From: a virus
IMG/VR virus record: IMGVR_UViG_3300028840_006907
Span: 64,001 to 128,000 of that record
Length of the DNA stretch: 64,000 nt
Direction: 5' to 3' (one strand)
Within the stretch, counting starts at the first letter, position 1. Each line of letters begins with the position of its first letter. Of this stretch, positions 9,763-63,176 are shown in pieces. Made by a program: the position numbers and the translations under genes. The notes beneath the pieces were generated by a model, which ran no database searches, was not told the origin of the DNA, and saw only the letters and a list, made by a program, of their open reading frames with translations.

Positions 9763-10310
9763 TCCGTTATAAAGAGATCTATGAACGAGTATTTGACATA
9801 CCTCATTATTCCAGAAACCAAGACCGAAAGATTACCTGTTCCCAAGTACATAACTATTTAATAGGAACTGAAAAATCTATCATTGATATAGGATCGGGGC
9901 GTGGGCCTGTTCTTATAGAACTGCTGAATCATTTTCAGAGATCTCAGATATTGTCTTGTGATTTAAAAAAGTTCCATGATATTGAAGTCCCGTTCCTGAA
10001 ACTGGATTTAACTGAGTTCAAGGATCGGGAAGCAATATTGAGGGTCTTTCCACAGTTTGATTTCTTAACCTGTTTTGATGTCCTGGAACATATCGAGCGA
10101 CAGGAATTGCACGCTATTCTCAGATTCTTTAAAGAGCTATCTAAAAAACATCTAATTATTGTAGCAAATCACTCTGATAACTGGGGCCAGGAATTACATT
10201 TAATACAGGAGCCCATGGACTGGTGGGAGGAAAGTTTTGGTGAATATTTTAAGATATTGGATAAAAAGAGTATTCATAATGATAGAGCGTATGTATTCCA
10301 TTTAGAATGA
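9759..10310 (+). CDS. class I SAM-dependent methyltransferase
   Basis: IIDIGSGRGPV motif I; FDFLTCFDVLEHI motif. Confidence 0.7.
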   Translation: MIRYKEIYERVFDIPHYSRNQDRKITCSQVHNYLIGTEKSIIDIGSGRGPVLIELLNHFQRSQILSCDLKKFHDIEVPFLKLDLTEFKDREAILRVFPQFDFLTCFDVLEHIERQELHAILRFFKELSKKHLIIVANHSDNWGQELHLIQEPMDWWEESFGEYFKILDKKSIHNDRAYVFHLE

Positions 10311-11983: not shown

Positions 11984-12025
11984 TCTAGGAATGTAAAGTA
12001 TTAGAGGATTATTAAGGGGAGGGAA

Positions 12026-15018
12026 ACCCCGCTCAGATGCAGGGAAGAAGATTTCATTAAGAAGTTTTAGGAAGAGCCCCGCAGAGGAGGAACCTCGCAA
12101 GATGCGGGGAAAAGGAACTTCAGGCAATTGGCTGGGATTAGCCCCGCGAAGGTGCGGGGAAAACAGTTTCCATGAACTATATTAGGGAGAGCCCCGTTGA
12201 CACGGGGAAAAACCCGTCTTTACTTAGTGAGATCGAGGAAGGAACAGCCCCGTTGATACGGGGATAAAATAATATGACTTTTACGAATCCTCTAGGGACA
12301 GCCCTGCAGAGTGCAGGGAAAAGTAACGTCTGGGAATTGTTTAGGATTAGCCCCGCGAAGGTGCGGGGAAAGCCATAGATTTTATATTGACACAGGAAAA
12401 ACCCCGGTATAGTCCGGGGAAAAGTACGTAATCAAGATGTAAGAGGATTAGACCCGGCGAGTCCGGGAAAAGATTGGCCCAATCACTATTAAGTAGGGTG
12501 GGATAGCCCCGCAGAATGCAGGGAATAGATGCCTCACTTCATACCACTGCGTCAACCCCAGTAGAGTCCGGGGAACATGAGTGTAAATCTCTGTCGTAGG
12601 TTCAACCCCGGAGAGATCCAGGGGAAATGGGTACAACTTTGTGTACAAGGGGTAGCCCCGGAGAAATCCGAGGAAAATGAGTGTAAATCTGTGTTGAGGG
12701 TCCAGCCCCGCTCAGTGCAGGGAATATTAAGGGTCAAAACCGGTTGCCCCTGCGTCAACCCCGGTGAAGTCCGGGGAACATGAGTGTAAATCTCTGTGGT
12801 AGGATCAACCCCGCAGAGTGCAGGGAAAAATTGAACTTTTTAATCAACCCTGTAACAGCCCCGGAGTCAGTTTTGACAAGTCCGGGGGAATATCACTTCG
12901 TAAAGGAGTGGCTGTCAAGGGGGCAACCCCACAGAGATGTGGGGGAAAGTAAGCCAACGTTCCGGCATAGGCATAGCCCCTGAATTTACAGAGGGCAATT
13001 TTTCCAGTGTCCAGAAGAAGATGCAGGGAGAACCCCGGAAAGTCCAGGGGAAAATGTGTCACAGAACAACTCTTTGTGATCTCCAGGGTGAACCTCGCAG
13101 AGGTGCGGGGGAAAAGTGTCAATGAATACCAGTATGAGTCAGCCCCGGTATAGCCCGGGAATAATTACTTCTAGTCTGATAGAAGGTGCAACCCCGGGAA
13201 GTCCGGGGAAATCGGTCATAGCCATCTGGACCAGGAAGAACCCCGGTGAGATCCGGGGAAAAGGACGTTTAAATCCTGACATAGTAGCTAACTGAGGCGT
13301 AGCTCCGGTCGGGTCAGCCCTGCAGAGAGCAGGGAACAAACATAGGTAATAAATCGGCACGTGACAGCCCCGCAGAGAGGCGGGGATATATAGCGTGAGT
13401 TGCAGGGTAAGGTTCAACCCTTGTTTACCAAGGGAAAAATACCGGCAGATAAGAATTTAGGATGACCCCCGGTGAAAGTCCGGGGAAAATAATTAATACG
13501 CAAAACAGCAGGGCCAGTCCCGCGAGATGCAGGGAATGTTCAGCCAGTTTGTGTAATATTTCAGGAGACGGTGGTGCAACCCTGTCAAGGACAGGGATAT
13601 GCAACATCTGTGGCTCTACGAGGATCAGCCCCGGCAAGTCCGGGGAATTATCTTTTTATAAATGCCAAAAATAACAGTTGGGAGGGGCCAATTCCGCTGA
13701 TGCAGAAAGACATTTCATAATTAATATATTTATGGAAGAGCCCCGGTGAAATCCGGGGAAGTCAAGTAATTACAGCTCGCTGACCACTGGGGGTAGCCCC
13801 GGTAAGATCCGGGGAAAAGTTTGTTTTGAAACAAACGCTAGGAACAGCCCCGCTCAGGTGCGGGAGAATCACTGCATATTTGGTTAATGGCCCCCCTGAG
13901 TCAATCCCGCTCAGGTGCGGGGAAAATAAAGAGATAGACTAATTCAATATGCAGGAAGAACCCCGCTATATGCAGGAAAATTTAAAAAGTATGGATATCT
14001 CCTTGAGTCAACCCCGGAGATCCAGGGAAATGTAGGCACTCGTTGTCCTTTGTCGAAGTGTGAAGGGCAAACCTCGTTGATACGAGGAACAAATTTAGTT
14101 TTACTTTTGAATAAAAGTGGTCAAGCCCCGCTCAGGTGCAGGGAATAGATAAGTATACCGACGATAGCCAGGACAGCACCTGTGGTTTAGCCCTGCATGT
14201 GCAGGGAATAGTTGAGTTGAAGATTGAAGAAAAAGATAAAGTAGGGTCAGCTCTGCATGTGCAGAGAATAGCCTTTCTTCAAGCGTTGACTTGGGAGTAG
14301 GTGGGGATCAGCCCTGCACATGCAGGGAATAGAATGGTGAATCAAATTCCATTTTGTCAAAGAACGGCGACAGCCCTGCCAGTGCAGGGAATATGATTTT
14401 AACGATGGTAAAATTGGGAAGGGGTCAGCCCTGCACATGCAGGGAATAGTCGCTAGTTCAAATCCAATCGCCCCGACAGGATCAGCCCTGCATACGCAGG
14501 GAATAGAAAATACTGACGATAAACTAGCGATATGGGATCAGCCCTGCATACGCAGGGATATAGCTTGACGAATGGCCGTTTTAATGCCAGGAGTAACCCC
14601 GCTGCGAGGAATAGTCATTTCAAATATATAGGTAAAGCCCCGCGAAAGAGCGGGGGTATAATATGGCGGATTTTGTTCTATTGGTGGAATCCGGGCCATC
14701 CCCGTAGATTGACACGGGGAGATCTTTTAGAAATCTACCAAGGTGCCTTTCCGGAGTCATCCCCGTATATACGGGGGAGATTTCAATTCAGGGAATTTCG
14801 GTACAAAATTGGTCGGTTTATCCCCGTATACACGGGGAATATTGTTTCAATAGGGCATAGCAGATCTAGGATCGGGGAATCCCCGCAGGGGCGGGGAACA
14901 TCTCGGATTTATTAATCAAATTCAAACGTTTTTCGGGGAATCCCCGCAGGGGCGGGGAACATTGTTTTAAGAGGTGGTAGTTACCTCGTAGGGGAATCCC
15001 CGCAGGGGCGGGGAACAT
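12026..15018 (-). CRISPR. CRISPR array 1 with highly heterogeneous I-E-like repeats (~55 units)
   Basis: Three identical leader-proximal repeats, GGGGAATCCCCGCAGGGGCGGGGAACAT, start at 14874, 14935 and 14991. Read on the minus strand they are ATGTTCCCCGCCCCTGCGGGGATTCCCC, close to the type I-E consensus GTGTTCCCCGCGCCAGCGGGGATAAACCG. Hairpin units then continue every 49-62 bp down to ~12026. Confidence 0.9.
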
Positions 15019-15057
15019 ACTAAGTCATAATGCCATTCAAATCAAAGGTTTATAGGA

Positions 15058-15127: not shown

Positions 15128-17359
15128 CTAGTGGATATACCGAATCCATTCATATCGAATTTTCATCGTTTTATAAGGAGCTTTTTTTCTCCCTGGAAAT
15201 ATGTTTCCTTCAAAAAGGAAAAATTTTTGAACAATTTTAAATTCAGCGTTTGATGGTGTCAAGCTCTGTGGTGCATAATCCGAACGCCAGTAATTATTAC
15301 AATATATAAATTTTTCTTCTCTGTCTTTTTGTATAAGGCCCGGAAACACCACTAAAACTATCTTTTCGTTTTCAATAACAATATCCCCTTGATAAATAGC
15401 TATTTCTAAATCCAGACCATCCTGCTCTATCACACGAGCATATTTCGAGAGTTTCCCATCAATCTTTACTTTAGCTTTAGGGGGAATATCAAAAGTTATC
15501 CATTCACCTTTTATGTCCTTAATGCTTTGAATAGGTTTTTTAACTGGAATTTCTTGAAAGACATGATCTTGGTATTCTGCTTTTTTAAGGATTTCTCCAT
15601 CTTTTTCCATATTAAGCAATAAAGCCTTTTCCATGATGTCTTTAAGTTCATAGAGATCTTTTTCAGTTAAGGGCTCTTTTGTTCCGAATACGATGGAACC
15701 TACATTCTCTAATCGAGCGATTTTATCAAAACCCTGTTTCCGGACAAAGTCTATGGTAATATGTTCTATTTTTCTATTTCTTGAAAGTCTTATGATTCTT
15801 ACAAATTCAGTTTTAATTGTGTCTTTGAAATTATCAAAACTTAAATGATCTTCTACGTAGGGATGATACAAATCCGCTATAAGACTTAATAAAATTTCTA
15901 TGTCTTCAGGTTTATCCTGTTTACGGTTGTAATCATAAGCTTTAATAATTTCTTGTCTCATTTCCATTAATATATCAGGAGCCATTATTTCACTTAAACT
16001 GGTAGATCCTTTTTTGTCCCGATAAAAGGGAGCTGTTGGAAGTAAGGGAATCCTGATAGCAGCACAAAGTTCTGACATTACAATTGAGGTTAAGAACAAA
16101 TTCAATCTGTCTGAATATAATGCCCTGATATTATTACGTTCTTCTTTTTTAATAGGTGGAACATAAATGTATAACCATATTTTATCTTTTTTAGGGTAAC
16201 ATCTGAAAATACGAAACATTATTTGAGAGAAGGTCACCTGACTCTTTCCATAACTTGTATTATGTAAAACAGCAGCAGGAGGCCAATCATACCCTTCATA
16301 GAATATTCTGCAAGATACGGCGACCCAGTATTTTTTATGATTACGTCTCAATAACTCTCTATTTTTTTTCTGAGTTTCCGGTGTGACTAAATCCAGTACT
16401 TTGGACGCAGGATATATTTCGTGAATAGCTTTTAAATATTTTTTAAGGGTTCCTTCCTCTCTGAACCGGTTCCCCATGTCAGGTAATATGACAATGTGTC
16501 TTTGATCTTTGTGCTCTTTCATATATCTAATGATCTGAGTAAGGGGATCTTTCCTATAGTGAGTGAAACGGAAATTGAATTCTTTGATTTTTATGATTGA
16601 GAGATAGTCATTTAATGGGATAACCCATTTTTCAAAATGATGTTTATAAGCATTGGGGACTATTTCTCCTCTGTCTGTGCGGTGGTAAGTAGCTGTATAA
16701 AAATTTACGTTACAAGTAGGTTCATGGATGGTACATACATCTCTGACAAAATCACCCAAATGAGTGGAATCTAGTGGGGTTGATTTTGAATGATGGCATT
16801 CATCTACATGTACAGTTAAATTTCTAAGGGCTTTCTTTTTTTCATAGTTGGTTAATTTTTCCCAGGTCATGACAAACCCTCTATGGGTAGCTGTAGCAAT
16901 AGGGCCTGTTATATGTTTTTCATTGTACGGGTATTTTCGAGGATCTGCTAAAAGGAATTCTTTAAGTCCTTTAATGGATTGAGGGTTTTCACTATTGAAT
17001 TTATGTTCTTTTGGTACTTCCCACAATCTTACCATACCTTTATATTTGATTTTTATTTGTCTATTTTGGGATCTGCAGAAATTTTCACCTATTTCTATTG
17101 TTGGTGCGATAAAGATATGTTTTCGAGTATTTTTAGATATTATGATTTCATCCAGGGATATGCATACTGCTAAAAAAGTTTTGCCGACTCCCCCTGGTGC
17201 ATCAAAGATCATGTATCTGAATTTTTTCCCATATTCTTTTGCATTGCATTGCCAGCCAGAGGGTATCATGATCCCTGATTCAAGTTTTTTATTATAGGTA
17301 CCAAGGTCAACCGGTTCTATTTTAATAGATTGCTGGAAAAGCGGTAATAGCTTTTTCAT
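15128..17359 (-). CDS. SF2 DExH helicase, Cas3'-like position, no HD nuclease domain
   Basis: Motif I APGGVGKT, motif II DECHH, motif III TAT, motif VI-like QIMFRIFR. Only ~55 aa precede the Walker A, so there is no room for an HD domain. Last gene of the cas operon. Confidence 0.75.
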   Translation of the reverse strand: MKKLLPLFQQSIKIEPVDLGTYNKKLESGIMIPSGWQCNAKEYGKKFRYMIFDAPGGVGKTFLAVCISLDEIIISKNTRKHIFIAPTIEIGENFCRSQNRQIKIKYKGMVRLWEVPKEHKFNSENPQSIKGLKEFLLADPRKYPYNEKHITGPIATATHRGFVMTWEKLTNYEKKKALRNLTVHVDECHHSKSTPLDSTHLGDFVRDVCTIHEPTCNVNFYTATYHRTDRGEIVPNAYKHHFEKWVIPLNDYLSIIKIKEFNFRFTHYRKDPLTQIIRYMKEHKDQRHIVILPDMGNRFREEGTLKKYLKAIHEIYPASKVLDLVTPETQKKNRELLRRNHKKYWVAVSCRIFYEGYDWPPAAVLHNTSYGKSQVTFSQIMFRIFRCYPKKDKIWLYIYVPPIKKEERNNIRALYSDRLNLFLTSIVMSELCAAIRIPLLPTAPFYRDKKGSTSLSEIMAPDILMEMRQEIIKAYDYNRKQDKPEDIEILLSLIADLYHPYVEDHLSFDNFKDTIKTEFVRIIRLSRNRKIEHITIDFVRKQGFDKIARLENVGSIVFGTKEPLTEKDLYELKDIMEKALLLNMEKDGEILKKAEYQDHVFQEIPVKKPIQSIKDIKGEWITFDIPPKAKVKIDGKLSKYARVIEQDGLDLEIAIYQGDIVIENEKIVLVVFPGLIQKDREEKFIYCNNYWRSDYAPQSLTPSNAEFKIVQKFFLFEGNIFPGRKKAPYKTMKIRYEWIRYIH

Positions 17360-17444
17360 TGTCTTTTTCCTCTCAAATAAGTCCTGGAAAGCCTTTTCAG
17401 GGGCTTTCCAGGATTAATGTACTGTGTATTCTATATCAACACTT

Positions 17445-17600
17445 TCAATCGTTTTTATCAATCTCCGTGGCTAATACCGACATAAATGACATTCCGGTTC
17501 CTCCTGGTAATTCAATAATAGAAGGTCTTTTGATGTTCTCTTCTAAATTCCTAGAAGCGAGTTGCCAAGAATAGGCTTTTATAGTTTTTGTATTATTCAT
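17445..17600 (-). CDS. 51-aa ORF resembling the helicase N-terminus (degenerate Walker A)
   Basis: YSWQLA...IIELPGGTGMSFMSVLATEI aligns with SGWQCNA...MIFDAPGGVGKTFLAVCISLDEI of the helicase. GGAG lies upstream. Confidence 0.4.
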   Translation of the reverse strand: MNNTKTIKAYSWQLASRNLEENIKRPSIIELPGGTGMSFMSVLATEIDKND

Positions 17601-17628
17601 TTTAAAATCTCCATATAAAAGGTTTATT

Positions 17629-18273
17629 TTAATAAGATTTATACGGTGCAATAAGCATCATACCACATCCGAAACCTTTACTCTTACCAATTCCATTATA
17701 AATAGTATTCACAAAAAGATTTTTATTGACTACCTGAAGGACTCCTCGTAAATCAATACTGAAAAAAGATACAACTTTACCATCTTTTTTTTTGAATTTA
17801 CAGAATTGAAAAGATTGAACGGAATGCTTTTGAATCATATTTTTAAAACCGTAACTTTGGCCACGTTTCTGAAGCCAATTCTTTGAGGATTCGTGAGCAA
17901 TGAAATTCCAATTATAGGGTTCATCAAGAACTTTCATTTCATTTGCCAGATCCGTCATGATTGAAACCTTTTTCCTGGTTTTCAATTTACAAACTTCGGC
18001 ATTGAGTCTGAGATCGTATTGAAGAAATATTCCAGATTTTAAATTATTTAAATCGAATACTTTTGTTTGTGTAGTGTATTCGTCCTCTGGAGGATTTGGT
18101 TTCTTTTTTGATATGATATAAAGTTCACCATTATAGAGATAATAAAGGAAATCTCTTACCCTGTTAGATCTTTGATCACCAAAAAATTCCCAGACTTTTT
18201 GATGAAGCTCATATATACCTTCGGTGGGAGAATATCTTCTCAAGCTGTCACTGTAAATTTTACTCAGAAACAT
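17629..18273 (-). CDS. cas6e: Cas6e (CasE) crRNA endoribonuclease
   Basis: MFLSKIY...YELHQKVWEFF...RDFLY and C-terminal GIGKSKGFGCGMMLIAP parallel E. coli CasE (MYLSKV...LHQGLW...GIGPAKSMGCGLLSLAP). AGGAGG lies 6 nt upstream of the ATG at 18273. Confidence 0.85.
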   Translation of the reverse strand: MFLSKIYSDSLRRYSPTEGIYELHQKVWEFFGDQRSNRVRDFLYYLYNGELYIISKKKPNPPEDEYTTQTKVFDLNNLKSGIFLQYDLRLNAEVCKLKTRKKVSIMTDLANEMKVLDEPYNWNFIAHESSKNWLQKRGQSYGFKNMIQKHSVQSFQFCKFKKKDGKVVSFFSIDLRGVLQVVNKNLFVNTIYNGIGKSKGFGCGMMLIAPYKSY

Positions 18274-18910
18274 TCGATACCTCCTTCCATCCCATATACT
18301 CAATTCGGGATCGGTATTGTTTGGGACCGGTTACCTGATCAAAACGTTGATTGCTTTTTACTATTTTGATACTGGTATCGGTACCTTCCCAAAATATTCG
18401 GTTCTTTTCACGCCCTTTAAGACTACCATTAAGAAATTCAGGAAGAGAGTACTGTTCAAACGCCTCTGAGAGGCTCTCAGCCTTAACGATCTTAGGATCG
18501 GGTGGTATGTCATAGGAACAGCATTTCCTTCCAAGAAAGGGGGTATAGATGGGCCTATTAAGGGCTTCCATTATTTTCTTCAAAGTATAGGGACAGTTTT
18601 CATTCTCCCATATACATACGGTAAAGATGGCATTGACTAGGTAAAATCTATTCGAGACAATTCCTGGTCCGACTCTGACAATATGGAAATCTTTTAGAAT
18701 AGTACCAGGATTATCTTCCCTACAGGCAAATCCTAGTTGGGCAATCTGAGTTAATTCTTTCACCATTTCTCTTGAGACTCCAAGAGAAGCAGCGATTAAC
18801 CCGCTTACGCCAGATTTGGTAGGGTGATCATCTGTCTTTCGGGTATTACCCTGAAGGGGGAGACCCCAGGCGGATAGAGTACCCGAAAGAAGGAATAATA
18901 AATAATTCAT
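18260..18910 (-). CDS. cas5e: Cas5e (CasD)
   Basis: MNYLLFLLSGTLSAWGLP...TRKT..HPTKSGVSGLIAASLGVSRE parallels the Cas5e N-terminus (LRLAGPMQAWG...PTRSGLLGLLGACLGI). Confidence 0.85.
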   Translation of the reverse strand: MNYLLFLLSGTLSAWGLPLQGNTRKTDDHPTKSGVSGLIAASLGVSREMVKELTQIAQLGFACREDNPGTILKDFHIVRVGPGIVSNRFYLVNAIFTVCIWENENCPYTLKKIMEALNRPIYTPFLGRKCCSYDIPPDPKIVKAESLSEAFEQYSLPEFLNGSLKGREKNRIFWEGTDTSIKIVKSNQRFDQVTGPKQYRSRIEYMGWKEVSNVSE

Positions 18911-18933
18911 AATATTATAACTCCTGGTAACAA

Positions 18934-20019
18934 TTAGAAATCGATGAATTTAATAAGTTCGTTAAGTGATCCTTCTTTTGTGAGTACATTCAAGATCCTA
19001 TAATCCATTTCATGGTAACATGAATCAAAACTACTTTTCATGTCAAGAAGGGCTTTGACAGCATTTTCCATAACCGCAGGACCTTTAATAGGAGTATGGA
19101 AGGCTTGACAGAGACTTCGTGGGGCAGTTGGAGCTTTTTCGATCATAACGAATGCTGGCCATGTTTGACTATCAGCACATCTGTTTTTATTAGCTGAGGG
19201 GGATGAAGTGGTTAATACTTCGACTATCTGTCGGATGGTTTTGATAGCTAGTTCTTTATTACCTTGAAGATTTTTCGTTAAGAGCTTGGAATTGATTACA
19301 AAGAAACTATAATAGACACCCTGGGTAAAATAGAAATTATCTAGGTGACCTGAACCTTTGGTTCCTTCTAATCCAAGGTTATCGGTAGCTGTAAAATAGT
19401 CGGTTTGGACAGATCCTATATCATTGACAGTAAAAGCGAAATTTGAGGACAGTGAAGCTTCAACATCATATTGGGGCAGTTTTGCAATCATGCGACCGGT
19501 AAGGGCTGTTCTGATTCCTGTATTTTCTTTTAAAAAGAAGAATTCTTGATCAGTGGGTTTATGCCCCTCAATAATTTTGTCAATCAGTTCTTCAATATGT
19601 TGTCTTTCGCTCGGTTGAATTTTAATGGTTTCGGTTTTAAGAAGATCAACCTTTTTTTTCTTTTTCTTTGTATTTTTATCATCTTCTTTTTCAGTGTGCT
19701 TTTTGATATCAACAAAAGTACCAATAAATTTAAATGCGTATTCTTCAGCTTTTTTAGGTGATATTCCACCATCAATTAATCTTTTCTCGACATATTTTCC
19801 AATAAGAGGAGTCTGAAGACCTATATCGATTTCGCACCTTTCAAATAGAGCCTTGTTTAAATCATATTTTCGATTTTGTGAAGACGAATAACCTCGGTTG
19901 GTATCATTAAGTTTCATTGTTTTAGGACGTCCGTCCTGGCCTCGGTTTATGCTAGATACAGCTACACCAGTGAGAAGGTGAATTAACCAGTAGGGGTCTT
20001 TAATAATAGTTTTAGACAT
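18934..20019 (-). CDS. cas7e: Cas7e (CasC/Cse4) backbone subunit
   Basis: LIHLLTGVAVSSINRGQDGRPKT...RGYSSSQNRKYDLNKAL parallels CasC (HVLISHSPSCLNRDD...RISSQSLKRAMR). 361 aa, like CasC. Confidence 0.85.
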   Translation of the reverse strand: MSKTIIKDPYWLIHLLTGVAVSSINRGQDGRPKTMKLNDTNRGYSSSQNRKYDLNKALFERCEIDIGLQTPLIGKYVEKRLIDGGISPKKAEEYAFKFIGTFVDIKKHTEKEDDKNTKKKKKKVDLLKTETIKIQPSERQHIEELIDKIIEGHKPTDQEFFFLKENTGIRTALTGRMIAKLPQYDVEASLSSNFAFTVNDIGSVQTDYFTATDNLGLEGTKGSGHLDNFYFTQGVYYSFFVINSKLLTKNLQGNKELAIKTIRQIVEVLTTSSPSANKNRCADSQTWPAFVMIEKAPTAPRSLCQAFHTPIKGPAVMENAVKALLDMKSSFDSCYHEMDYRILNVLTKEGSLNELIKFIDF

Positions 20020-20045
20020 AAATACTCCTTGATATTTATTATTTA

Positions 20046-21989
20046 TTATATGTTATTTGAATATTCTCTTTCCCAGTAGAACTTGACATCTTTGCTCCAG
20101 TGGGCATACCCTTCCATGAAACTGATGATGTTAAATCCTTCCATTCGAGAAACAACATCAGCAAATACTTTCCAGTTTTTTTGTATATCCGTTTTATTGA
20201 AACTCATCATTTCGTCAACATGTCGGCGGTTAATTTTTTGAGAACCCATTTGGGCACCGAAAGATTGAGAAAAATCCAGATCCTTAGCTTTAAAAACAAT
20301 TAGTAGAAGAGGTACGAAAAGAGTCTTCATATCTTCTGATCTTAAAGCAGGGAAATGCATAGACATTTCTAAAATAAAATTCAAATAAAGGTCTTCATGT
20401 TTTAAGATATCGATGTCAAAACATCGGGTAAATACCCTATGTTTTTCTGTATTTCTAATAGTCCCGTACCAGGACAGGAATGGTTTGGTAAAGACCTGGT
20501 TAAAATGAGGTAGGTTTAATTTCCTGTATTCGATATGGGCGAAATTCTCATATTCTAATGGTTGTAGTTTAAGAGGTTTAACAACTTTTTTATTTAAGGT
20601 TTCGATAAATTGTTCCTTAAAATATTTCTGTAAACCTCTCTTTTCAGTACCTACATTTTTTTCAAATGTATCGAAAGCTTTAACTACCATCTTTTCCAAC
20701 CATTTTTCGATATTATGATTCTTGAGAACTTCATAGAAGTATTCTTCAGTTTCTGTCAGAAATTCGTGAAATATTAAAGGTTCGGTTTTATCAGTTCCCC
20801 AGAACTTTCTTATATAATTACAGGTATACCATCCTATAAGATATGAGTGTTCTCTGATATTTAAAGTAAACGCACTATCTTTATAGAGTTCTTCTGGGAT
20901 ATCGAATTTATTTTCCTCCCATCCAAAGAGTTTGGCTTTAGCCATATTATAACCGAAAGTCCATAATCCGAAATCAGTTATTCCAAGATATTCTCGGTTC
21001 TCCATGAAATGACTCACCACTAAAGCTGGAGTTAATTTTTTAGCTGGTAGTAGATAGGTCACAAGATCGAGATGGCTGGTAAAGTCCAGGGGTTTCCGGA
21101 AACCTGTTTCTTTGCCTTTTATAATGGGTGAAAGGATATGACGTGGTTTGACATAACAGTTACCATAATTCCTCGTTTTTATCTTTCTAACCATTAATTT
21201 GGAATGATTGCCACAGATAGTACATGATTCATCAAATTTATCAAAGATAAGATGAATACGTAGAGGCATTTCCCAGAGCGGGTAATAAGGATTCATCTCA
21301 TCCAGGGAAACAGTAGCTTTGTTTTTACTATCAACGGTATCACTAAGCCATGGGAGTGTTACACCTTTTGGATTTCCTCCGAATTCAAACATGGTCTTTT
21401 TAATAATAACATTAGACCATATTGTTTCCCATAACGTGGAACCGGTAATAATAGTGGTAAGAGAACCATTGGCACCGGCTGTTATCGAAGTACGGTATCC
21501 TTGGCCTCCCATAATGGCACTGAGTTGATTAAGATAAAGGGCAATTGTAGCACAGGATTGGCAAAAAGTATGTATCTTTGCTTTTTGGAAGAAATCTTTA
21601 CCAGCTTTAATTGTCGCTGTCCCTGGAGTATCAAAGAGGAGATTACCAACATTTACGATTCTTTCAAGGTCCTGTGGCCGTTTATCCTGTAAAAAACGAG
21701 GACCTTTGCCATCTAGTTCAAAGAGTTTTGGTTTAAGTTTTTCTAGGATGGCTTTTTGGTTTGGTGCTTTTTTGAATAGTTTTTTCCATTCTTTCTTACT
21801 TGTAGGAGCAAGATAAGTGTTGAAAAAACCTATGAGAAGCCGTACACCTACAGCATTGAAATCGGGTCTACCGAAATCGAGAGCTATTATAGGGTTATTA
21901 GGTTTTGAAGTTATTTTGTAGGGTGGAATGTTTTCCCTGGTACCGTCTTTTCGGATGACGGGGATCCAAGGGTCCTTAATTACATTCAT
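20046..21989 (-). CDS. cas8e: Cas8e (Cse1) large subunit with fused Cas11/Cse2-like C-terminal domain
   Basis: N-terminus MNVIKDPWIPV and CQSCATIALYLNQ...GGQGYR parallel Cse1 (NWIPV; CGGCTAIALFNQ...GGGFK). The C-terminal ~170 aa (SFGAQMGSQKINRRHVDEMM...HWSKDVKFYWEREY) parallels Cse2 (SLGRALANSGRINERRIFQLI...WWGKRERQQLLEDF). There is no separate cas11 gene. Confidence 0.8.
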   Translation of the reverse strand: MNVIKDPWIPVIRKDGTRENIPPYKITSKPNNPIIALDFGRPDFNAVGVRLLIGFFNTYLAPTSKKEWKKLFKKAPNQKAILEKLKPKLFELDGKGPRFLQDKRPQDLERIVNVGNLLFDTPGTATIKAGKDFFQKAKIHTFCQSCATIALYLNQLSAIMGGQGYRTSITAGANGSLTTIITGSTLWETIWSNVIIKKTMFEFGGNPKGVTLPWLSDTVDSKNKATVSLDEMNPYYPLWEMPLRIHLIFDKFDESCTICGNHSKLMVRKIKTRNYGNCYVKPRHILSPIIKGKETGFRKPLDFTSHLDLVTYLLPAKKLTPALVVSHFMENREYLGITDFGLWTFGYNMAKAKLFGWEENKFDIPEELYKDSAFTLNIREHSYLIGWYTCNYIRKFWGTDKTEPLIFHEFLTETEEYFYEVLKNHNIEKWLEKMVVKAFDTFEKNVGTEKRGLQKYFKEQFIETLNKKVVKPLKLQPLEYENFAHIEYRKLNLPHFNQVFTKPFLSWYGTIRNTEKHRVFTRCFDIDILKHEDLYLNFILEMSMHFPALRSEDMKTLFVPLLLIVFKAKDLDFSQSFGAQMGSQKINRRHVDEMMSFNKTDIQKNWKVFADVVSRMEGFNIISFMEGYAHWSKDVKFYWEREYSNNI

Positions 21990-27032: not shown

Positions 27033-27322
27033 AATGCCTTCTTTCTTCTTTTTCGTCTATGTTCTAAAAGTATTTTTCCCATTTCATAATTTGTGATTTC
27101 TTTGGCACCCATTTCAATAGCTCTTTTTCTTCGGCTTTCTACCAAATCGAAATGAATAAAACCGGTTCTACTTTTTTGTATCCAGTTTTTTTTCATTCCA
27201 ATCTTTTCTGCAAATTCGAGTAATTCTTTAATACTAATATCAGAAAACATGTGACAGTTTTTCACATATCTTCCACGAAGTTTCCAAAGGTTATCTTTTA
27301 ATTCATCTACATATATTGTCAT
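27029..27322 (-). CDS. DUF4031-family protein
   Basis: IYVDEL...CHMFSD..EELLEFAEKIGMKKNWIQ...HFDL...RKRAIEMGA follows the DUF4031 pattern. Confidence 0.6.
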   Translation of the reverse strand: MTIYVDELKDNLWKLRGRYVKNCHMFSDISIKELLEFAEKIGMKKNWIQKSRTGFIHFDLVESRRKRAIEMGAKEITNYEMGKILLEHRRKRRKKAL

Positions 27323-27849
27323 GGTAATGTTAATCCGAATTTGTCAAAAATTCCTATGATTGCTTCAGCATTACCCATAGCATCATCTAGTGGATTATGG
27401 GTATGTTTTGTTTTTCGAAACTTCTTTTTCCAGTTCCTTTGAGCGTTGAATTTTTTTACAAGCCCACTATATAGATCCCCGATTCTCCTGGCACTATGTC
27501 CAAAAGGATTGTTATTACAAAAATGCCATAGATAATAATTTATGAATTGCCAGTCGAAAACGGGGTTATCCGAAATGAATACAATTCCTTGTTCTTTTTC
27601 ATTTATATTTTTTAACCATTGGTGAAATTTTTCTATTACTTTTTTGGGTGGAGGGAATTTTTTAACTTCTTTATATGAGAATCCTGAGACAACTAGAGCT
27701 GATTCGATAAATTTATTTGTTATAGGGCGTAATTGACTATAAAAAGTCCTGTTTAATTCTGGCTCTACAACTACCGCTCCGAAACAGACCATGGAATAAT
27801 CGCCGGGGCATGGACCGTCAGCTTCAATATCTACTGAGATAAGTTTCAT
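27319..27849 (-). CDS. DEDD-type 3'-5' exonuclease
   Basis: SVDIEADG (Exo I), FISDNPVFDWQF (Exo II), HNPLDDAMGNA (Exo III). Confidence 0.65.
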   Translation of the reverse strand: MKLISVDIEADGPCPGDYSMVCFGAVVVEPELNRTFYSQLRPITNKFIESALVVSGFSYKEVKKFPPPKKVIEKFHQWLKNINEKEQGIVFISDNPVFDWQFINYYLWHFCNNNPFGHSARRIGDLYSGLVKKFNAQRNWKKKFRKTKHTHNPLDDAMGNAEAIIGIFDKFGLTLP

Positions 27850-31316: not shown

Positions 31317-32270
31317 TTATTCCTTAAAATAAAATTTAGATTTTAAATTATCGTAAGCACTCCAATTACCTTCAATAATACGATTAGTATATATAGTACT
31401 TAGATTGTATTCAGAGTCGATTATATCAGCTTTAGATAAAAGTATAGCTTCAGGAGTCATCGGGACTACTGCAGCCCCTAAATCCAGAGAACCGTGATGA
31501 CTTAATATTAAATGACCTAATATTTTTTTCATTCGGTTTCTTTCTTCCGGAGGAGCTTCTAATGCGTTTATGATTGGTATAATATTAGTATAACTTAAAT
31601 TGAGATGACTATGCAATCGTCCTATATCAGTCATTTCAATAGTCAAGTCATATGTATAGGAAAACATTTTTCCGTGATCATGAAGAAAAGCTCCCATGCA
31701 AATGATAGAAGGATCTATTGGATAAATATAACAGAAAGAGGAACAGATCTTCGTTACACATAAAGTATGCTCTAATAGACCGTGTAGATAAGCGTGATGG
31801 ACGTTACCCTTTCCTCCAGGGCACATTTTAAATTTATGCACAAATGTTTCATTATTTTTAAATTTATCCCAGAGATCTCTCATATATTTATTTTTAACTT
31901 TATCATCCATTATTTGAACTAGTTCAACCCACATTTCATCGGGATCATGTGGTGAAGTAGGAAGGAAATCTACAGGATTATAAGGATTTGTTTCTTCAAT
32001 TGAAGATACAATGATTTGATTCTGACCTTGATATACATTAACTTTCCCTTGAATACGACAAACTTTAGCATTTTTAACTATTTCGTAATAAGTATCTGCA
32101 TGATTGAAAGCGGTTGCTGCTATCTGTCCTTTTTTATCTCTCAACTCAAAAGTTAGAAAATTACCTTTTGAAGCGTTTTTGAATGGTCTTAGTGAAGCGT
32201 CTGCTATAACGAAGATTCCATCTATATCTGTTCCACTACTCAATGTTAATATATCTGCTGTGTTTACCAT
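31317..32270 (-). CDS. YhaM-like OB-fold plus HD-domain 3'-5' exoribonuclease
   Basis: N-terminal OB-fold-like region, then HHAYLHGLLEHT and FLHDHGK HD motifs. 317 aa. Confidence 0.6.
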   Translation of the reverse strand: MVNTADILTLSSGTDIDGIFVIADASLRPFKNASKGNFLTFELRDKKGQIAATAFNHADTYYEIVKNAKVCRIQGKVNVYQGQNQIIVSSIEETNPYNPVDFLPTSPHDPDEMWVELVQIMDDKVKNKYMRDLWDKFKNNETFVHKFKMCPGGKGNVHHAYLHGLLEHTLCVTKICSSFCYIYPIDPSIICMGAFLHDHGKMFSYTYDLTIEMTDIGRLHSHLNLSYTNIIPIINALEAPPEERNRMKKILGHLILSHHGSLDLGAAVVPMTPEAILLSKADIIDSEYNLSTIYTNRIIEGNWSAYDNLKSKFYFKE

Positions 32271-43047: not shown

Positions 43048-44658
43048 TTAGTACAGAGGCTTTCCTGGTGCTGATCTCATACTCATAGGTCTTGGTATTT
43101 CTTCTTTCGCTGTTTCATCTTCTATAATAGCTATCTCTTCATTGAATTTATATGCTTTTAAATTCTTTTTAGACTGTTCGAAAAAGGTGATAGCTTTATC
43201 GATTTCATCTATAAGTGTTGATGTTTCCGGATTATCCATATTAATAAAGACCTTTTCAATAATACCGCATGTTAATTCTGCTTGTGTAAAATTATTGTTT
43301 AAGCATCGTGTTAGTATTTTTTCCAGATCTTTTTGTAGAGGAAATTCAATATCTTCGAATTTGGTATAGAAGCGTTTTAGTTTATTGAATTTGGACAGCA
43401 TCACGACATATGCCTCATCCCCGGTTCTGGGAGGTTTTATTTCAACTATTTCATCGAATCTCCCTGGTCGGTCAATGATAGTTTTATGGACTAATTCTGT
43501 GTCGTTAATGGTTATTAAAAGAACTATGTTAAGGTTATTATTTGTATCATCTATTTCATTTATAAAAGCTCCAACACGTTCGTTTTTTTCCTTAAATCCA
43601 AGAGCATCGAGATCTTCAATAATAACAAGAGCTGGTTGAATCATCCGAACAAATTGAAAGCACTTTTTTATTCGGTAAACTGTGCTGAATTCTTCAGGAC
43701 CTAGTTTGATAATAGTTATATCCGTAAGGATCTCTTCGAGTTTTTTTATGATAATAGATTTACCGGTACCCTGAAGCCCTATGAATCCGAAACCCCTTTT
43801 ACGATTATACTTTAAAATTTTCCTTATTACTTGTGCAAAAGCAGGAACATCATATTGGTTGATATTCTCTTCAACCTTCTGACGTGGTTTTGTTATAAGG
43901 CCATTTCTGAATTCCAATATATTGTCATGGGTATTAAAGGTGACAATGAAATCTTTTATTATGAGTTCTTCTAGATCGCGGATAATTTCTTCTGCTGAGT
44001 AAGATGAATTTAACGCATATTGTAAATCAAAGTAATATGAGGAAGATATCAACTTTGTGATCTTTAAATCGAACAATATTTTCTCATCATTAAATTCAAC
44101 CAGAATAAGGATCTCATTAAATTCGTGATCGAGTGAAACCTTTTCTAATGGTTTAAAAGAATGATCATAGTAACCTATTATTTTATATCCATTTGTTTTC
44201 GGGCTTTTAAATAGCCAGAATATGATGTCTTCATTTAAATATTTAGTCTCGTAATAACTGACATTATGGATATCCTCTATCTCTAAAAATTCTTTTAATT
44301 TCTTCTGCCTCTTATCATATTCAGAAAGTTCTTTTTGGTTTATTTTATCTATATATTTCTTGATTTTAATACCCATCTCCAGGCCATAGAGTGAAGCCGG
44401 TAAGGTATAGCGAAATAAGTTGAAGGTGTTTTTAAAAGTGAGTTTTCGATTACCATTGGTTAAGAATTTAAATCCTTTATCTAAATCTAAGATAACAGAT
44501 AAAGCTTTTGTGATATCTGCTGGACTTCCGTAATTTTCACCAATAAAATTGAATAAATGATATAGTTTGTGGTTTCTGGGAACCAGATTCATCAGTGATA
44601 TATCTGTTTTGGGATTTTCATCTCCTGCTGTCGTTACTGGCATATTTACTCGTGGCAT
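43048..44658 (-). CDS. AAA+ ATPase
   Basis: Walker A GLQGTGKS, Walker B LVIIEDLD, followed by an arginine-finger-like DRPGRFD. Confidence 0.75.
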   Translation of the reverse strand: MPRVNMPVTTAGDENPKTDISLMNLVPRNHKLYHLFNFIGENYGSPADITKALSVILDLDKGFKFLTNGNRKLTFKNTFNLFRYTLPASLYGLEMGIKIKKYIDKINQKELSEYDKRQKKLKEFLEIEDIHNVSYYETKYLNEDIIFWLFKSPKTNGYKIIGYYDHSFKPLEKVSLDHEFNEILILVEFNDEKILFDLKITKLISSSYYFDLQYALNSSYSAEEIIRDLEELIIKDFIVTFNTHDNILEFRNGLITKPRQKVEENINQYDVPAFAQVIRKILKYNRKRGFGFIGLQGTGKSIIIKKLEEILTDITIIKLGPEEFSTVYRIKKCFQFVRMIQPALVIIEDLDALGFKEKNERVGAFINEIDDTNNNLNIVLLITINDTELVHKTIIDRPGRFDEIVEIKPPRTGDEAYVVMLSKFNKLKRFYTKFEDIEFPLQKDLEKILTRCLNNNFTQAELTCGIIEKVFINMDNPETSTLIDEIDKAITFFEQSKKNLKAYKFNEEIAIIEDETAKEEIPRPMSMRSAPGKPLY

Positions 44659-46654: not shown

Positions 46655-47758
46655 ATGAAATTGTTTGTTACCGGTGGAGCAGGATTTATAGGAGCTAATT
46701 TCGTAAATTATTGGATTCAGAAACACCCCAATGACTATGTTACTGTTTTTGATAAATTAACGTATGCAGGGAATCTTAGTAGTTTATCAAAAGTAATGAA
46801 ACATCCTCATTTTAAATTCATTCGTGGGGATATTTTAGATTATAATTTATTATGCAAATCATTGAAAGAAGTAAGTACAGTTGTTCATTTCGCTGCGGAA
46901 TCCCATGTGGATCGGTCTCTTTCGGGATATGAAGCAGAGATGTTGTTTAATCGAACTAATTTGGATGGTACTATCACGCTTCTTCATGCTTGTTCTTTAA
47001 TGGATGTTGAGAGATTTCATCATGTCTCTACAGATGAGGTATATGGTGATTTAGGATATGATGATAAGCCATTTAATGAGAAATCACCCTATAATCCCCA
47101 TAACCCTTATGCTATAAGTAAAGCTGCGGCTGATTTTGCGGTTAGAGGATTTTCCCGTAGTCATGGGTTGGTATATACTATAAGTAATTGTACCAATAAT
47201 TATGGTAAATACCAAACCCCAGAAAAAATTATCCCTCGATCTATATGTCTTTTATTGCAGGATAAAAAGATTGAACTCTATACCGATGAACTAGGAAATC
47301 CAGGGACGAATATTCGAGATTGGATTTTTGTAGAAGATCATTGTAGGGCAATTGAGAAGATCCTTTTATATGGGAAAAATGGAGAAACTTATTGTATTGG
47401 TGGTAATTGTGAGCTAAAAAATATCGAATTGGTTAAAAAGATTTTAGCAATTATGTCAAAATTATTGGGTAAAACCTTTTTTGTTGAAAATAATGTCAAA
47501 CTAGTTAAAGACAGACCCGGGCATGATTTAAGATATGCTATGGATATTGAGAAGATTTCTTCTGAGTTGGACTGGATCCCTAAGCATTCATTTAATGAGG
47601 CATTTGAGTTAACCGTAAAGTGGTATTTATCAGAAGAAGGACAACAGTGGTTAAAATCAGTTGAAAAAACTTCTGGGGAAGTGAGAAAAGATCAGAGTAA
47701 AAAACATAAGAAGAGTTTTGATCTAAAGAATAAATTCAGCCATATTTTCAAACAGTAG
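46655..47758 (+). CDS. rmlB: dTDP-glucose 4,6-dehydratase
   Basis: MKLFVTGGAGFIGANFV Rossmann motif, catalytic YAISKAAAD, and typical RmlB length and pattern. Confidence 0.9.
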   Translation: MKLFVTGGAGFIGANFVNYWIQKHPNDYVTVFDKLTYAGNLSSLSKVMKHPHFKFIRGDILDYNLLCKSLKEVSTVVHFAAESHVDRSLSGYEAEMLFNRTNLDGTITLLHACSLMDVERFHHVSTDEVYGDLGYDDKPFNEKSPYNPHNPYAISKAAADFAVRGFSRSHGLVYTISNCTNNYGKYQTPEKIIPRSICLLLQDKKIELYTDELGNPGTNIRDWIFVEDHCRAIEKILLYGKNGETYCIGGNCELKNIELVKKILAIMSKLLGKTFFVENNVKLVKDRPGHDLRYAMDIEKISSELDWIPKHSFNEAFELTVKWYLSEEGQQWLKSVEKTSGEVRKDQSKKHKKSFDLKNKFSHIFKQ

Positions 47759-47760
47759 AA

Positions 47761-47789
47761 GTTGGCCTCTCCTATAAGAAGAGGCCAAC
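47761..47789 (+). terminator. hairpin terminator after rmlB
   Basis: 10-bp stem gttggcctct/agaggccaac. The T-tract is weak. Confidence 0.5.
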
Positions 47790-47872
47790 CATTCTTTAAG
47801 TGGTATACACAACTTAAAGAGCGGTCCTTCATGTTAACGTAGGTAATTTTCTCTGTAAGTTGTTGATTTATA

Positions 47873-48282
47873 TGGAGGTGAGGAGAGTTGAACTCCTGTC
47901 CGCGAAGGTATCTTGAGTAAACCTCTACATGTTTAGTCTATGGTTTAAATCTTATTCATAATCACGTTCACAGACAAACTTAATTAAGAACCAGTCTCTA
48001 GTCTCATTCATTGGTCAAGACTCCTCAATGAACCAGAACCCGTTTGGCTATCCGGAATTAACAGGGTTCAGTTAAAACCGGATTTGTCGTTTTTTGTTTA
48101 AACGACGGCTTCTTCTGCTTGATGAATAGCAGCAAGGTTAAGTGCTGAAAACATCGCACAGAAGTTAACTGTATTAGTTTTTTCAGTTATTATTGAAATC
48201 GGCTTTTTTACGAGGCCAACCGATTAACCTCGACATGCAGTTTACATTTCAACTCATCACGTCGAAAACCAAGTACACCCCC
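47873..48282 (-). ncRNA. ssrA: tmRNA
   Basis: 5' end GGGGGTGTACTTGGTTTTCGACG. 3' end AGGAGTTCAACTCTCCTCACCTCCA (T-arm plus acceptor). Acceptor GGGGGTG/CACCTCC has a G3-U70 pair (Ala identity). CCA is not encoded. Confidence 0.85.
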
Positions 48283-48305
48283 AGAATTATCAAAGAACTA
48301 TTAAT

Positions 48306-48334
48306 AGTATAAACTATTTCAATGAAAATATCAA
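48306..48334 (-). promoter_or_regulatory. sigma70-like promoter of the tmRNA
   Basis: Minus strand reads TTGATA, 17 nt, TATACT. It ends 23 nt upstream of the tmRNA 5' end. Confidence 0.6.
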
Positions 48335-55705: not shown

Positions 55706-56290
55706 ATGGAGGGAAATATGGTAAATAAAGATCCAGAAGATGTGGCTTTATTCGACATGGATGGCACTCTCTGTGACTACGAGAAAGGACTTATAAAGAG
55801 CTTGGAACAACTCAGGTCACCAATGGAGCCTCCTGTAACGAAACCACCTTCAAAAAGTTCCCCGAACTATTTAAGGGTACGTGCGGATCTGGTACGTACG
55901 AATGAAGATTGGTATGTTAACCTTGATCGATTTGAACTTGGTTTTGATATCTGGAATATTGCTGAAGAACTCGATTATACCAGAATGATTTTAACCCAAG
56001 GCCCGAAACGAAATCCATTCGCATGGTCTGGGAAAAAGATGTGGATCGATAAGCATCTGGGGACGGATGTTGGCATCACCATCACGCGAGATAAAGGGTT
56101 AGTGTATGGACGTGTTCTTGTAGATGACTACCCAGGATATATCAATCGTTGGTTGGAATGGCGTAGGAACGGGTTGGTAGTAATGCCAGCTAGTAGAATT
56201 AATGGTGATTTCAAGCATCCTCAGGTTATCCGATATGACGGGAGTAATTTAAATGAAGTCAGAGAAAGAATGATTGCAGTGAAGAGGTAA
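55706..56290 (+). CDS. HAD-family 5'(3')-deoxyribonucleotidase-like
   Basis: ALFDMDGTLCDY (DxDxT) and VLVDDYP. Confidence 0.6.
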   Translation: MEGNMVNKDPEDVALFDMDGTLCDYEKGLIKSLEQLRSPMEPPVTKPPSKSSPNYLRVRADLVRTNEDWYVNLDRFELGFDIWNIAEELDYTRMILTQGPKRNPFAWSGKKMWIDKHLGTDVGITITRDKGLVYGRVLVDDYPGYINRWLEWRRNGLVVMPASRINGDFKHPQVIRYDGSNLNEVRERMIAVKR

Positions 56291-63068: not shown

Positions 63069-63176
63069 GGAGAGGTAGGTTTAATTGGTAAAATCAGTGC
63101 TTTGCACAGCACCTAAGCTAGCAAGGTGCCATTCCAGGGATGGATTTCGGGGTTCAAGTCCCCGTCTCTCTGCCAA
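63069..63176 (+). tRNA. aberrant 108-nt tRNA-like gene (anticodon uncertain)
   Basis: Canonical acceptor GGAGAGG/TCTCTCT, D-arm, T-arm CGGGG-TTCAAGT-CCCCG and CCA. Between the D-arm and T-arm lie ~53 nt with competing hairpins. Confidence 0.5.

Follow-up and report, generated by a model that had tools for sequence, protein, structure and literature searches.

The window analyzed here is a 64,000-nucleotide (nt) stretch of viral DNA, positions 64,001 to 128,000 of IMG/VR record IMGVR_UViG_3300028840_006907. It carries on its minus strand a gene for transfer-messenger RNA (tmRNA) that is real and complete and is structurally a member of the Rfam family RF00023. Read together with its relatives, the sequence makes it very likely that this is a functional phage-borne tmRNA which uses a tag reading frame of 28 codons. 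The peptide that this frame would add to unfinished proteins is hydrophobic, ends in Val-Val, and has homologues of comparable length in related phages.

Identity and architecture of the tmRNA

ARAGORN called a single tmRNA in the window, a one-piece molecule at 47873-48282 (-) with the tag EKTNTVNFCAMFSALNLAAIHQAEEAVV*. RF00023 matched 47870-48282 (-) over the full model (positions 1-374 of 374) with 159.9 bits against a gathering threshold of 47 (E = 3.7e-63). A preliminary description of this DNA had proposed such a one-piece tmRNA; the two programs agree on it, the covariance model places its pseudoknots and resume codon, and all canonical parts of the molecule can be drawn (Table 1). The terminal features listed in that description, namely a 5' GGGGGUG (here GGGGGUG...GGUUUUCGACG), a tRNA-Ala-like acceptor with a G3-U70 pair, and the T arm AGGAG-UUCAACU-CUCCU, can all be read in the sequence. 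In relatives, the acceptor stem covaries while G3-U70 is retained (GGGAAUG/CAUUUCC, GGGCCUG/CAGGUCC and others). The gene does not encode CCA, and UAU directly follows the discriminator A. The same is true of CCA in 4 of the 18 tRNA genes checked within the window, so CCA addition is needed anyway.

By explicit pairing, the helix 2 segments form 8/8 and 5/5 pairs; the RF00023 alignment flags noncanonical pairs within the central part of helix 2, and others where the model itself places helix 5. A 12-nt single-stranded spacer, UUCAAUAAUAACU, which ends in AAUAACU, leads from pseudoknot 1 to the resume codon. The 5' strand of helix 5 is formed by the last two tag codons plus the first base (U) of the stop codon, whose two A's open the loop. 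Pseudoknots 2-4 pair completely or nearly so in the window sequence, and the model matches them in part.

The tag reading frame

On comparative sequence evidence, we regard the 28-codon frame as settled to be the true tag frame. Its first codon, GAA, falls at the consensus resume codon of the RF00023 alignment. It is preceded by U(-5)A(-4) in the window RNA (context AAUAACU) and in all relatives; these positions correspond to U85/A86 of E. coli, and there it is mainly A86 that sets the frame (PMC2481249). The frame is taken to be real because of four further properties. First, pairwise differences among the eight closest tag sequences are distributed 192/179/352 over codon positions 1/2/3, with a ratio of nonsynonymous to synonymous variation (pN/pS) of 0.09-0.7. 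Second, all twelve lineages keep this frame (frame 0) open, while the other two frames usually contain stops. Third, length variation of the tag among relatives comes in steps of whole codons, while 1- and 2-nt insertions and deletions (indels) occur in the spacer that precedes the resume codon. Fourth, a 7-bp hairpin holds the stop codon at the same place in most of 14 relatives (it is weaker in L121), and its stem covaries: GUCGUUU/AAACGAC, GUCAUCU/AGAUGAC, GCUGCUU/AAGCAGC, and GCGGCUU/AAGCCGC. The terminal Val in place of the usual Ala corresponds to a change from GCU to GUU, and the opposite strand of helix 5 carries the matching change from G to A (GCU/AGC to GUU/AAC).

The preliminary description had left the choice of frame open, with a candidate ending in ...EEAVV among its options. 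The Rfam alignment, the homologous tags, the codon-position bias and the stop-codon hairpin lead us to accept that candidate. Its UAA at 48098-48100 does lie in a hairpin, with the U closing the 7-bp stem and the two A's opening the loop. The reservation that the frame would be unusually long no longer applies, as a length of 24-30 codons is normal for the related phage clade.

Two ideas about the origin of the tag were considered and rejected. The internal ALNLAA resembles a canonical tag end, and just past it lies AUUCAUC, with which RF00023 aligned the UUAAU loop of its consensus helix 5; this would fit an extension beyond a lost stop codon, but the relatives have equally long tags, and helix 5 at 48106-48086 is conserved and covaries. 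A Bacillus-type origin was considered for the N-terminal EKTNTVNF, which resembles the B. subtilis tag GKTNSFNQNVALAA; it is not supported, as the relatives start with ANTV... or AKNTV.... The 5' domain of the relatives matches bacterial-looking tmRNAs that carry the tag AEDYSYAMAA.

Putative promoter and 5' leader

A sigma70-like promoter, TTGATA-17-TATACT, had been assigned to the tmRNA in the preliminary description. The boxes are present, and 23 nt separate the end of the -10 box from the mature 5' G. Taken alone, the match is at the level of chance, with 11 sites in 2.5 kb against 11.1 +/- 3.5 in shuffles; the DNA around it is AT-rich, and the GC content of the window averages 33%. The support for the promoter comes from enrichment among relatives and not from the local match. 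Among 23 nonredundant upstream regions of phage tmRNAs, 9 contain such a promoter (at least 9/12 matches, -10 box ending 14-30 nt upstream) compared with 1.84 +/- 1.17 when shuffled, and 0 of 500 shuffles reach 9. The other 14 have no good promoter, which, like the local count, speaks against the assignment.

Directly downstream of the window promoter lies the conserved phage leader TCTTTGAAAWTT, and about 25 related loci have TCTTTGAAA(A)TT at the same position. The motif, (A/T)GNTCTTTGAAA(A)TT, stands just after the -10 boxes, ends 2-5 nt before GGGG, and is found in nearly all members of both long-tag families described below. It was not found upstream of approximately 50 bacterial tmRNAs. 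Nor is it enriched elsewhere in the window, and the idea that it is a general phage promoter was given up on that ground. No consistent pairing between leader and 3' trailer was found. The simplest reading is that the leader is a transcribed and conserved segment of about 16 nt which RNase P would remove. At the other end of the gene, the terminator-like hairpin is probably bidirectional and also serves the convergent epimerase gene at 46655-47758 (+).

Relatives and their tags

Relatives were found in IMG/VR and JGI metagenomes with structural patterns that combined pseudoknot 1 with the unusual GGUUUUCGAY; the exact 5' 23-mer, the 272-aa upstream open reading frame (ORF) and tag back-translation patterns retrieved none from IMG/VR. 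The ANTV-type clade comprises L075, L076/L166, L093/L143, L103, L106/L193, L121, and L150, and L078/L086/L167/L170, L133, L160, and L175 stand farther away. Membership is marked by a hydrophobic homologous tag of 24-30 codons, by GGUUUUCGAC, and by the TCTTTGAAA leader, all of which the window RNA possesses. The typical family ending ...(L/V/F)AA, a typical and not a defining trait, is absent from the window tag. The RF00023 scores of the relatives, 115-168 bits, are comparable with that of the window RNA.

An internal hydrophobic core, VxF-x-x-x-FG...AQA, is conserved across divergent phages. The grand average of hydropathicity (GRAVY) of the clade tags is 0.4-0.95, with 12-residue windows of up to 1.85, compared with about -0.1 to -0.5 for bacterial tags. 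Among the trusted tags (those re-derived for the phage relatives and approximately 50 of bacterial origin), the window tag ends in Val-Val (...EEAVV), that of L075 ends in Ile (AVI), and all others end in Ala. A further non-Ala end, ...STWW in L041, is a raw ARAGORN call only.

The 29-nt 3' end of the tmRNA is identical in 33 GTDB genomes, mostly metagenome-assembled genomes of Clostridia, and in 7 IMG/VR contigs, and this pattern is shared too widely to diagnose the host. ARAGORN places a tmRNA at the identical 3' end in 31 of the 33 genomes; the tags have 8-16 residues in all but one and all end in Ala. The exception is L036, with at least 25 residues. This 443-nt tmRNA (L036 1931-2373, +) lies in a bacterial context by rph and murI on a contig binned as Coriobacteriales. 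ARAGORN gives it a tag of 25 residues; the frame may have an earlier start, at the GGC that follows UAAUU, and the tag would then reach about 38 residues. With L036 as the case, long tags are also present in some low-GC bacteria.

A second family of phage tmRNAs, 435-462 nt in length, was seen on IMG/VR contigs of 16-211 kb (L038-L044, L048, L052, L056-L060, L064, L066, L068, and L070). Its members have the 5' domain and pseudoknot 1 in common with the window RNA. Its tags of 32-35 residues are acidic and highly conserved, A(E)DNTDxILAEAEYIFNNADEFLxGxEEEYLLAA, and differ at codon positions 1/2/3 by 58/55/202. These genes are either missed by ARAGORN or called with only the final nine residues of the tag (ADEEMLLAA).

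Group I introns (RF00028, 79-107 bits) split the 3' tRNA-like domain of several phage tmRNAs in both long-tag families (Table 1). Such genes are not called by ARAGORN because the intron interrupts that domain. The window gene has no group I intron. On other viral contigs, tmRNA-like sequences of 212 nt lie beside genes for tRNA-Gln and tRNA-Leu (L051 954-1165, L065 10993-11204, and L072 5083-5294). They span the whole RF00023 model with only 40.5 bits, which is below the threshold, and could be minimal or degenerate phage tmRNAs without most pseudoknots.

Genomic context

The DNA of the window is also present on JGI metagenome contig Ga0180437_10000019 (388,651 bp) from sample 3300017963, which we take to be Salton Sea sediment, on NCBI JAEORW010000001.1 (469,617 bp), and on Logan and ENA contigs. 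The sample is part of a D. Valentine project (PMC7449369). According to ARAGORN there are 21 tRNA genes, in small clusters scattered among ORFans and HNH genes, and the JGI gene calls include HNH endonuclease genes in the adjoining flanks. Small co-directional ORFs without Pfam match form long runs, including 27 in the 10 kb to the left of the window. The genes of the window encode an intein-bearing radical SAM protein, a lysis-type amidase, a sigma-factor-like protein, NUDIX proteins, nucleotide-sugar enzymes, and a type I-E Cascade. No ribosomal or other housekeeping gene was found among the ORFs scanned over approximately 84 kb, nor was there a Pfam match to SmpB among scanned ORFs. A tblastn search with E. 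coli SmpB did not find smpB in the window or in any phage locus; in the positive controls, smpB adjoins ssrA in 8 bacterial loci.

No similar DNA was found among 50,697 deposited phages. Three window proteins gave no useful match when compared with deposited phages, and only the amidase gave matches. The best of these are uncultured phages of 635-735 kb (LR745206, LR756501-3) and Tenacibaculum jumbo phages, which weakly suggests a Bacteroidota host. Related loci share further proteins with the window. In L106 and L193, the gene directly upstream of the tmRNA encodes a homologue of the amidase (51-52% identity); the L160 locus has homologues of the radical SAM, glycosyltransferase-like and epimerase proteins; the L167 locus has a homologue (62% identical) of ORF 55706-56290; and the L078 locus has a T4-type RNA ligase together with a homologue of the AAA ATPase. 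L106 also encodes a CCA-adding enzyme (tRNA nucleotidyltransferase; 703-2301, +) about 3 kb upstream of a tmRNA without CCA, and no homologue of this enzyme was found in the window. Synteny through the 272-aa ORF upstream of the window tmRNA was pursued without success, since its only homologue (77% identity, in L002) has no tmRNA beside it.

Collectively, the evidence that the tmRNA lies in a huge phage genome is strong but indirect. The assignment to a phage, already made in the preliminary description, draws on the contigs of 389-470 kb, the ORFans, the 21 tRNA genes, the amidase matches, and the relatives on IMG/VR contigs.

Proposed function and fate of tagged proteins

In the proposed mechanism, the sigma70-like promoter would direct synthesis of a tmRNA precursor that carries the conserved leader (about 16 nt) at its 5' end and a trailer at its 3' end. 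RNase P would trim the 5' end, 3' exonucleases would trim the trailer, and a CCA-adding enzyme would supply CCA. Host alanyl-tRNA synthetase would charge the molecule with alanine through G3-U70. Host SmpB, proposed because none is encoded in the window, would together with EF-Tu bring it to stalled ribosomes, where Ala-EKTNTVNFCAMFSALNLAAIHQAEEAVV (alanine plus 28 residues) would be appended to the unfinished protein before release at the UAA. The likely benefit would be the recycling of ribosomes stuck on broken messages during infection.

It is probably the phage itself that decides the fate of the unfinished proteins. The least certain element of the interpretation is that the tag peptide has been selected as a signal in its own right, for degradation or for sorting, and would be tuned to something else than the classical LAA-ClpX interaction. 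We favor this view because purifying selection acts on the long hydrophobic tags and because the change from Ala to Val occurred with helix 5 kept paired. It is reasonable to propose that such a tag may steer proteins away from host ClpXP; that they meet a truly different fate is doubtful. A more far-reaching proposal is that this clade of huge phages has rebuilt trans-translation. The tag would then not be primarily a ClpXP degron but would lead to another fate (Lon/FtsH, membrane, aggregation, or a phage reader), the loss of terminal Ala here and in L075 would complete the escape from ClpX, and the TCTTTGAAA leader, as a signal for processing or control specific to phages, would time tmRNA production during infection. 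As a whole, this proposal is rather unlikely, and it is put forward tentatively.

Several points weigh against the functions and origin set out above. In E. coli, a tag ending changed to AAV or ASV slows degradation without abolishing it, and the Ala-Val-Val end, which is still nonpolar, might serve as a ClpXP or ClpAP degron. The MAFFT alignment was poor across pseudoknots 2-4 and shifted in register in pseudoknot 1, which made it unsuitable for counting covariation along the full molecule. Genes for SmpB and for a CCA-adding enzyme may lie on other parts of the contig. The approximately 84 kb read showed neither a capsid nor a terminase gene, which leaves a giant plasmid-like element as a formal possibility; such elements carry similar translation genes (Al-Shayeb et al., PMC7162821).

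Alternative explanations

The alternative that survives best is a working tmRNA with an ordinary degradation tag, whose length and Val-Val end are the result of neutral drift. Host ClpXP, ClpAP, or Lon would destroy the tagged products, and the phage would gain rescue capacity only. Most tags of the clade do still end in VA, AA, or LVA, and the AVV end is nonpolar, as in known degrons. Degradation by ClpXP, ClpAP, and Lon is the usual fate of tagged proteins, and it is rescue rather than degradation that decides the survival of E. coli (PMC8012679). Long bacterial tags exist as well, such as the 27-residue Mesoplasma tag and that of L036 with at least 25 residues. However, neutral drift is unable to explain purifying selection on the VxF-x-x-x-FG...AQA core across divergent phages. 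With the same search patterns, the phage tags are systematically long and hydrophobic as opposed to the approximately 50 bacterial tags of 8-16 residues (except L036), and the change from Ala to Val became fixed together with a compensatory change in the stem. We regard this explanation as a real possibility that falls short of being probable.

A decaying or nontagging relic, for example a tRNA-like decoy that titrates SmpB, is improbable. It has a precedent in the molecule of mycobacteriophage DS6A that consists of the tRNA-like domain only, for which such a role was proposed (PMC4131195). The unencoded CCA, the unusual GAA resume codon and Val-Val end, and the noncanonical pairs flagged by Rfam could be read as signs of decay. 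On the other side, the full-length RF00023 score is as high as those of the relatives, the frame is open and bears signatures of selection, a compensatory change has kept the stop-codon hairpin, and all four pseudoknots can form; the lack of CCA is shared by 4 of 18 tRNA genes of the window.

Still less probable is that the window is bacterial or contains a prophage junction, with the tmRNA being the host's own ssrA. Integration into tmRNA genes is common, many Clostridia tmRNAs have the identical 29-nt 3' end, and the NCBI copy of the DNA belongs to a GCA_ assembly. Yet the scanned ORFs over approximately 84 kb contain neither smpB nor a ribosomal or housekeeping gene, and the tRNA genes lie in small clusters among ORFans and HNH genes. 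Bacterial loci often have smpB by ssrA and tags of 8-16 residues. Moreover, the closest tmRNAs come from IMG/VR viral contigs and from contigs with which this element has proteins in common, and the 5' leader is phage-specific.

Finally, a tag read from the short frame ADFNNN (GCC GAU UUC AAU AAU AAC UGA), the other option in the preliminary description, can be dismissed with near certainty: although the frame is open, begins with an Ala codon and lies upstream of the long frame, its GCC sits inside pseudoknot 1, in the 3' strand of stem 2 (RNA positions 79-86), away from the consensus resume position of the Rfam alignment and without the U(-5)A(-4) context, and the region carries 1- and 2-nt indels among relatives and is therefore noncoding.

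Comparison with known tmRNAs

Compared to the one-piece SsrA of bacteria such as E. coli, the phage-borne tmRNA of the window has the same G3-U70 tRNA-like domain, pseudoknot 1, U(-5)A(-4), a resume codon starting with G, a stop codon in helix 5, three more predicted pseudoknots, and a similar overall size. It differs in being phage-borne with no smpB nearby and in its tag, which has 28 codons compared with 8-16 in all but one of the bacterial cases, is hydrophobic, and ends in Val-Val and not Ala-Ala. The Glu resume codon, the conserved leader and the unencoded CCA are further differences.

Phage tmRNAs were reported earlier from mycobacteriophages Bxz1, Cali, Catera and others and from Bacillus phage G (PMC4131195), and those of huge phages were listed by Al-Shayeb et al. 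2020 (PMC7162821). The window tmRNA resembles them in that it lies in a large genome rich in tRNA and translation genes and presumably serves ribosome rescue in infection. The tag of phage G is AKLNITNNELQVA (PMC12484599), 13 residues compared with 28 here, and the window tmRNA has no nucleotide similarity to any deposited phage. With the ANTV-type clade it shares GGUUUUCGAC, pseudoknot 1, the homologous tag core, the covarying stop-codon hairpin, the TCTTTGAAA leader, and nearby phage proteins. In contrast to that clade, the window tag has a Glu resume codon and two extra codons after the resume position (E-K-T vs A) and ends in Val (only L075 also lacks a terminal Ala), and the gene has no group I intron, while several relatives do.

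The ssrA tags of Mycoplasma and Mesoplasma are Lon degrons, and that of MfssrA has 27 residues (PMC10695633). The Mesoplasma tag is likewise long, and its retuning from ClpXP to another protease, Lon, provides a precedent for redirection of tagged proteins. It has no sequence similarity to the window tag, and the host of the window phage is probably not a mollicute.

No description of conserved long hydrophobic phage tags, non-Ala ends, a conserved leader, or frequent group I introns was found in the searchable literature. While phage tmRNAs themselves are known, a phage clade whose tags are long, conserved and hydrophobic appears to be undescribed, as do the lack of a terminal Ala in two of its members, the leader, and the frequent introns in relatives. 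The purpose of phage tmRNAs has been in question since their discovery in mycobacteriophages, and published accounts are mostly ARAGORN tag calls without analysis. Purifying selection maintains long tags in at least two groups of large phages (24-30 codons in one and 32-35 in the other), which implies that the peptide matters to the phage beyond ribosome release. Phage tmRNAs and their tags are probably undercounted because long tags and group I introns make routine annotation miss or truncate them.

Other features of the window

Table 1. Positions of the tmRNA, its parts and other features of the window, with tags and introns of related loci (positions refer to the window unless a locus is named)
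Feature	Position	Strand	Basis
Mature one-piece tmRNA, 410 nt to discriminator A	47873-48282	-	ARAGORN; RF00023 full length
Acceptor stem, 5' strand GGGGGUG, partner CACCUCC at 47874-47880	48276-48282	-	7/7 pairs, G3-U70, discriminator A
3' tRNA-like domain: T arm AGGAG-UUCAACU-CUCCU, acceptor 3' strand CACCUCC, discriminator A	47873-47897	-	Rfam; explicit pairing
Pseudoknot 1: CGAGG/CCUCG (5/5) and AAUCGGUU/AGCCGAUU (8/8)	48197-48232	-	Rfam alignment; explicit pairing
Tag frame: GAA resume codon 48184-48182, 28 sense codons = EKTNTVNFCAMFSALNLAAIHQAEEAVV, UAA 48100-48098	48098-48184	-	ARAGORN; Rfam; relatives
Helix 5: GUCGUUU, loop AAACAAA, AAACGAC, 7 bp	48086-48106	-	Explicit pairing; relatives
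Pseudoknot 2: UCCGG/CCGGA, UUAAC/GUUAA, loop GAACCC with GGGUUC	48036-48082	-	All pairs form; partial Rfam match
Pseudoknot 3: UUCAUUG/CAAUGAA, loop AGUCU with one of two AGACU copies	47993-48032	-	Pairing; Rfam alignment
Pseudoknot 4: UUCUUAAUUA/UGAUUAUGAA (9/10 pairs), loop GUCUGU with AUAGAC	47936-47990	-	Pairing; Rfam alignment
Sigma70-like promoter: -35 TTGATA 48334-48329, 17-nt spacer, -10 TATACT 48311-48306	48306-48334	-	10/12 match
Predicted 5' leader, about 16 nt, with motif TTCTTTGATAATT	48283-48299	-	Motif shared upstream of phage tmRNAs
Terminator-like 14-bp hairpin, 83 nt downstream of tmRNA	47760-47790	-	Consensus scan only
Radical SAM protein split by intein with LAGLIDADG homing endonuclease domain	7669-9762	+	
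tRNA-methyltransferase-like protein	9759-10310	+	
RNase T-like exonuclease	27319-27849	-	
YhaM-like 3'-5' exoribonuclease (OB fold + HD)	31317-32270	-	
Classical-clade AAA+ ATPase, 536 aa, 290-aa N-terminal region of unrecognized type	43048-44658	-	Weak PAN/Cdc48-like matches
Tag of L075 (149-kb IMG/VR viral contig): GKSNVDFCLAFGALCYANARQDIAVI			
Tag of L106: ANTVNFSVLFGALCYAQAHEVAVA; L106 and L193 together: ANTVNFSVLFGALCYAQA(H/R)EVAVA			
Tag of L103: ANTVDFSVLFGGMLYAQAREAQLVA			
Tag of L121: ANTVSFNVLFGGMLFSQAREAQLVA			
Tag of L150: ANTVDFSVLFGGMLFAQAREAQLAA			
Tag of L093: ANTTAFSVLFGGMLFAQAREAQLAA			
Tag of L076 (424-kb IMG/VR viral contig): ANNYAVKFALAFANNVRLGVANSVVA			
Tag of L078 group (more distant): AKNTVNPGVAFCMGFTAMCELATPVAIAA			
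Tag of L160 (more distant): ANKTVNPGVAFALQFAAMCDMAMAPVAKAA			
Tag of L133 (more distant): AKNTGAVLGMKFALGFAAMCGMTSQVAAA			
Group I intron, L150	L150 6648-6893		RF00028
Group I intron, L093	L093 4176-4415		RF00028
Group I intron, L078	L078 4995-5218		RF00028
Group I intron, L167	L167 5648-5871		RF00028
Group I intron, L057	L057 3844-4078		RF00028
Group I intron, L058	L058 2569-2803		RF00028

The RNase T-like, YhaM-like, and tRNA-methyltransferase-like proteins form a phage set for RNA 3'-end maturation and could take part in processing of the tmRNA trailer. The AAA+ ATPase gene lies 3.2 kb downstream of the tmRNA, and a 28%-identical homologue is found about 4 kb from the L078 tmRNA. Its role as a conserved neighbor or reader of the tag was rejected, as it is near the tmRNA only here and in L078 and not in L167.

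An ORF-poor stretch at 12000-15020 (+ coordinates), with about 50% GC, contains more than 50 hairpin repeats of the form CCCCG-N4-CGGGGAA. Three nearly identical copies, spaced by about 60 nt, occupy 14872-15018, and their reverse complement resembles the type I-E repeat. The outer units are degenerate and about 50 nt apart, and their stems covary (CCCCGG/CCGGGG, CCCUGC/GCAGGG). Beside the array, at 15128-21989 (-), are type I-E cas genes (casA, encoding 647 aa, casC, casD, and casE) and a gene for a 743-aa helicase without a match to a Cas3 model; cas1 and cas2 were not seen with them. A hairpin array of this kind is very unusual for a phage-borne Cascade. Lastly, a 104-nt match to the tRNA model at 63069-63172 (+), at threshold (30.1 bits) and uncalled by ARAGORN, could be an interrupted or odd tRNA gene.

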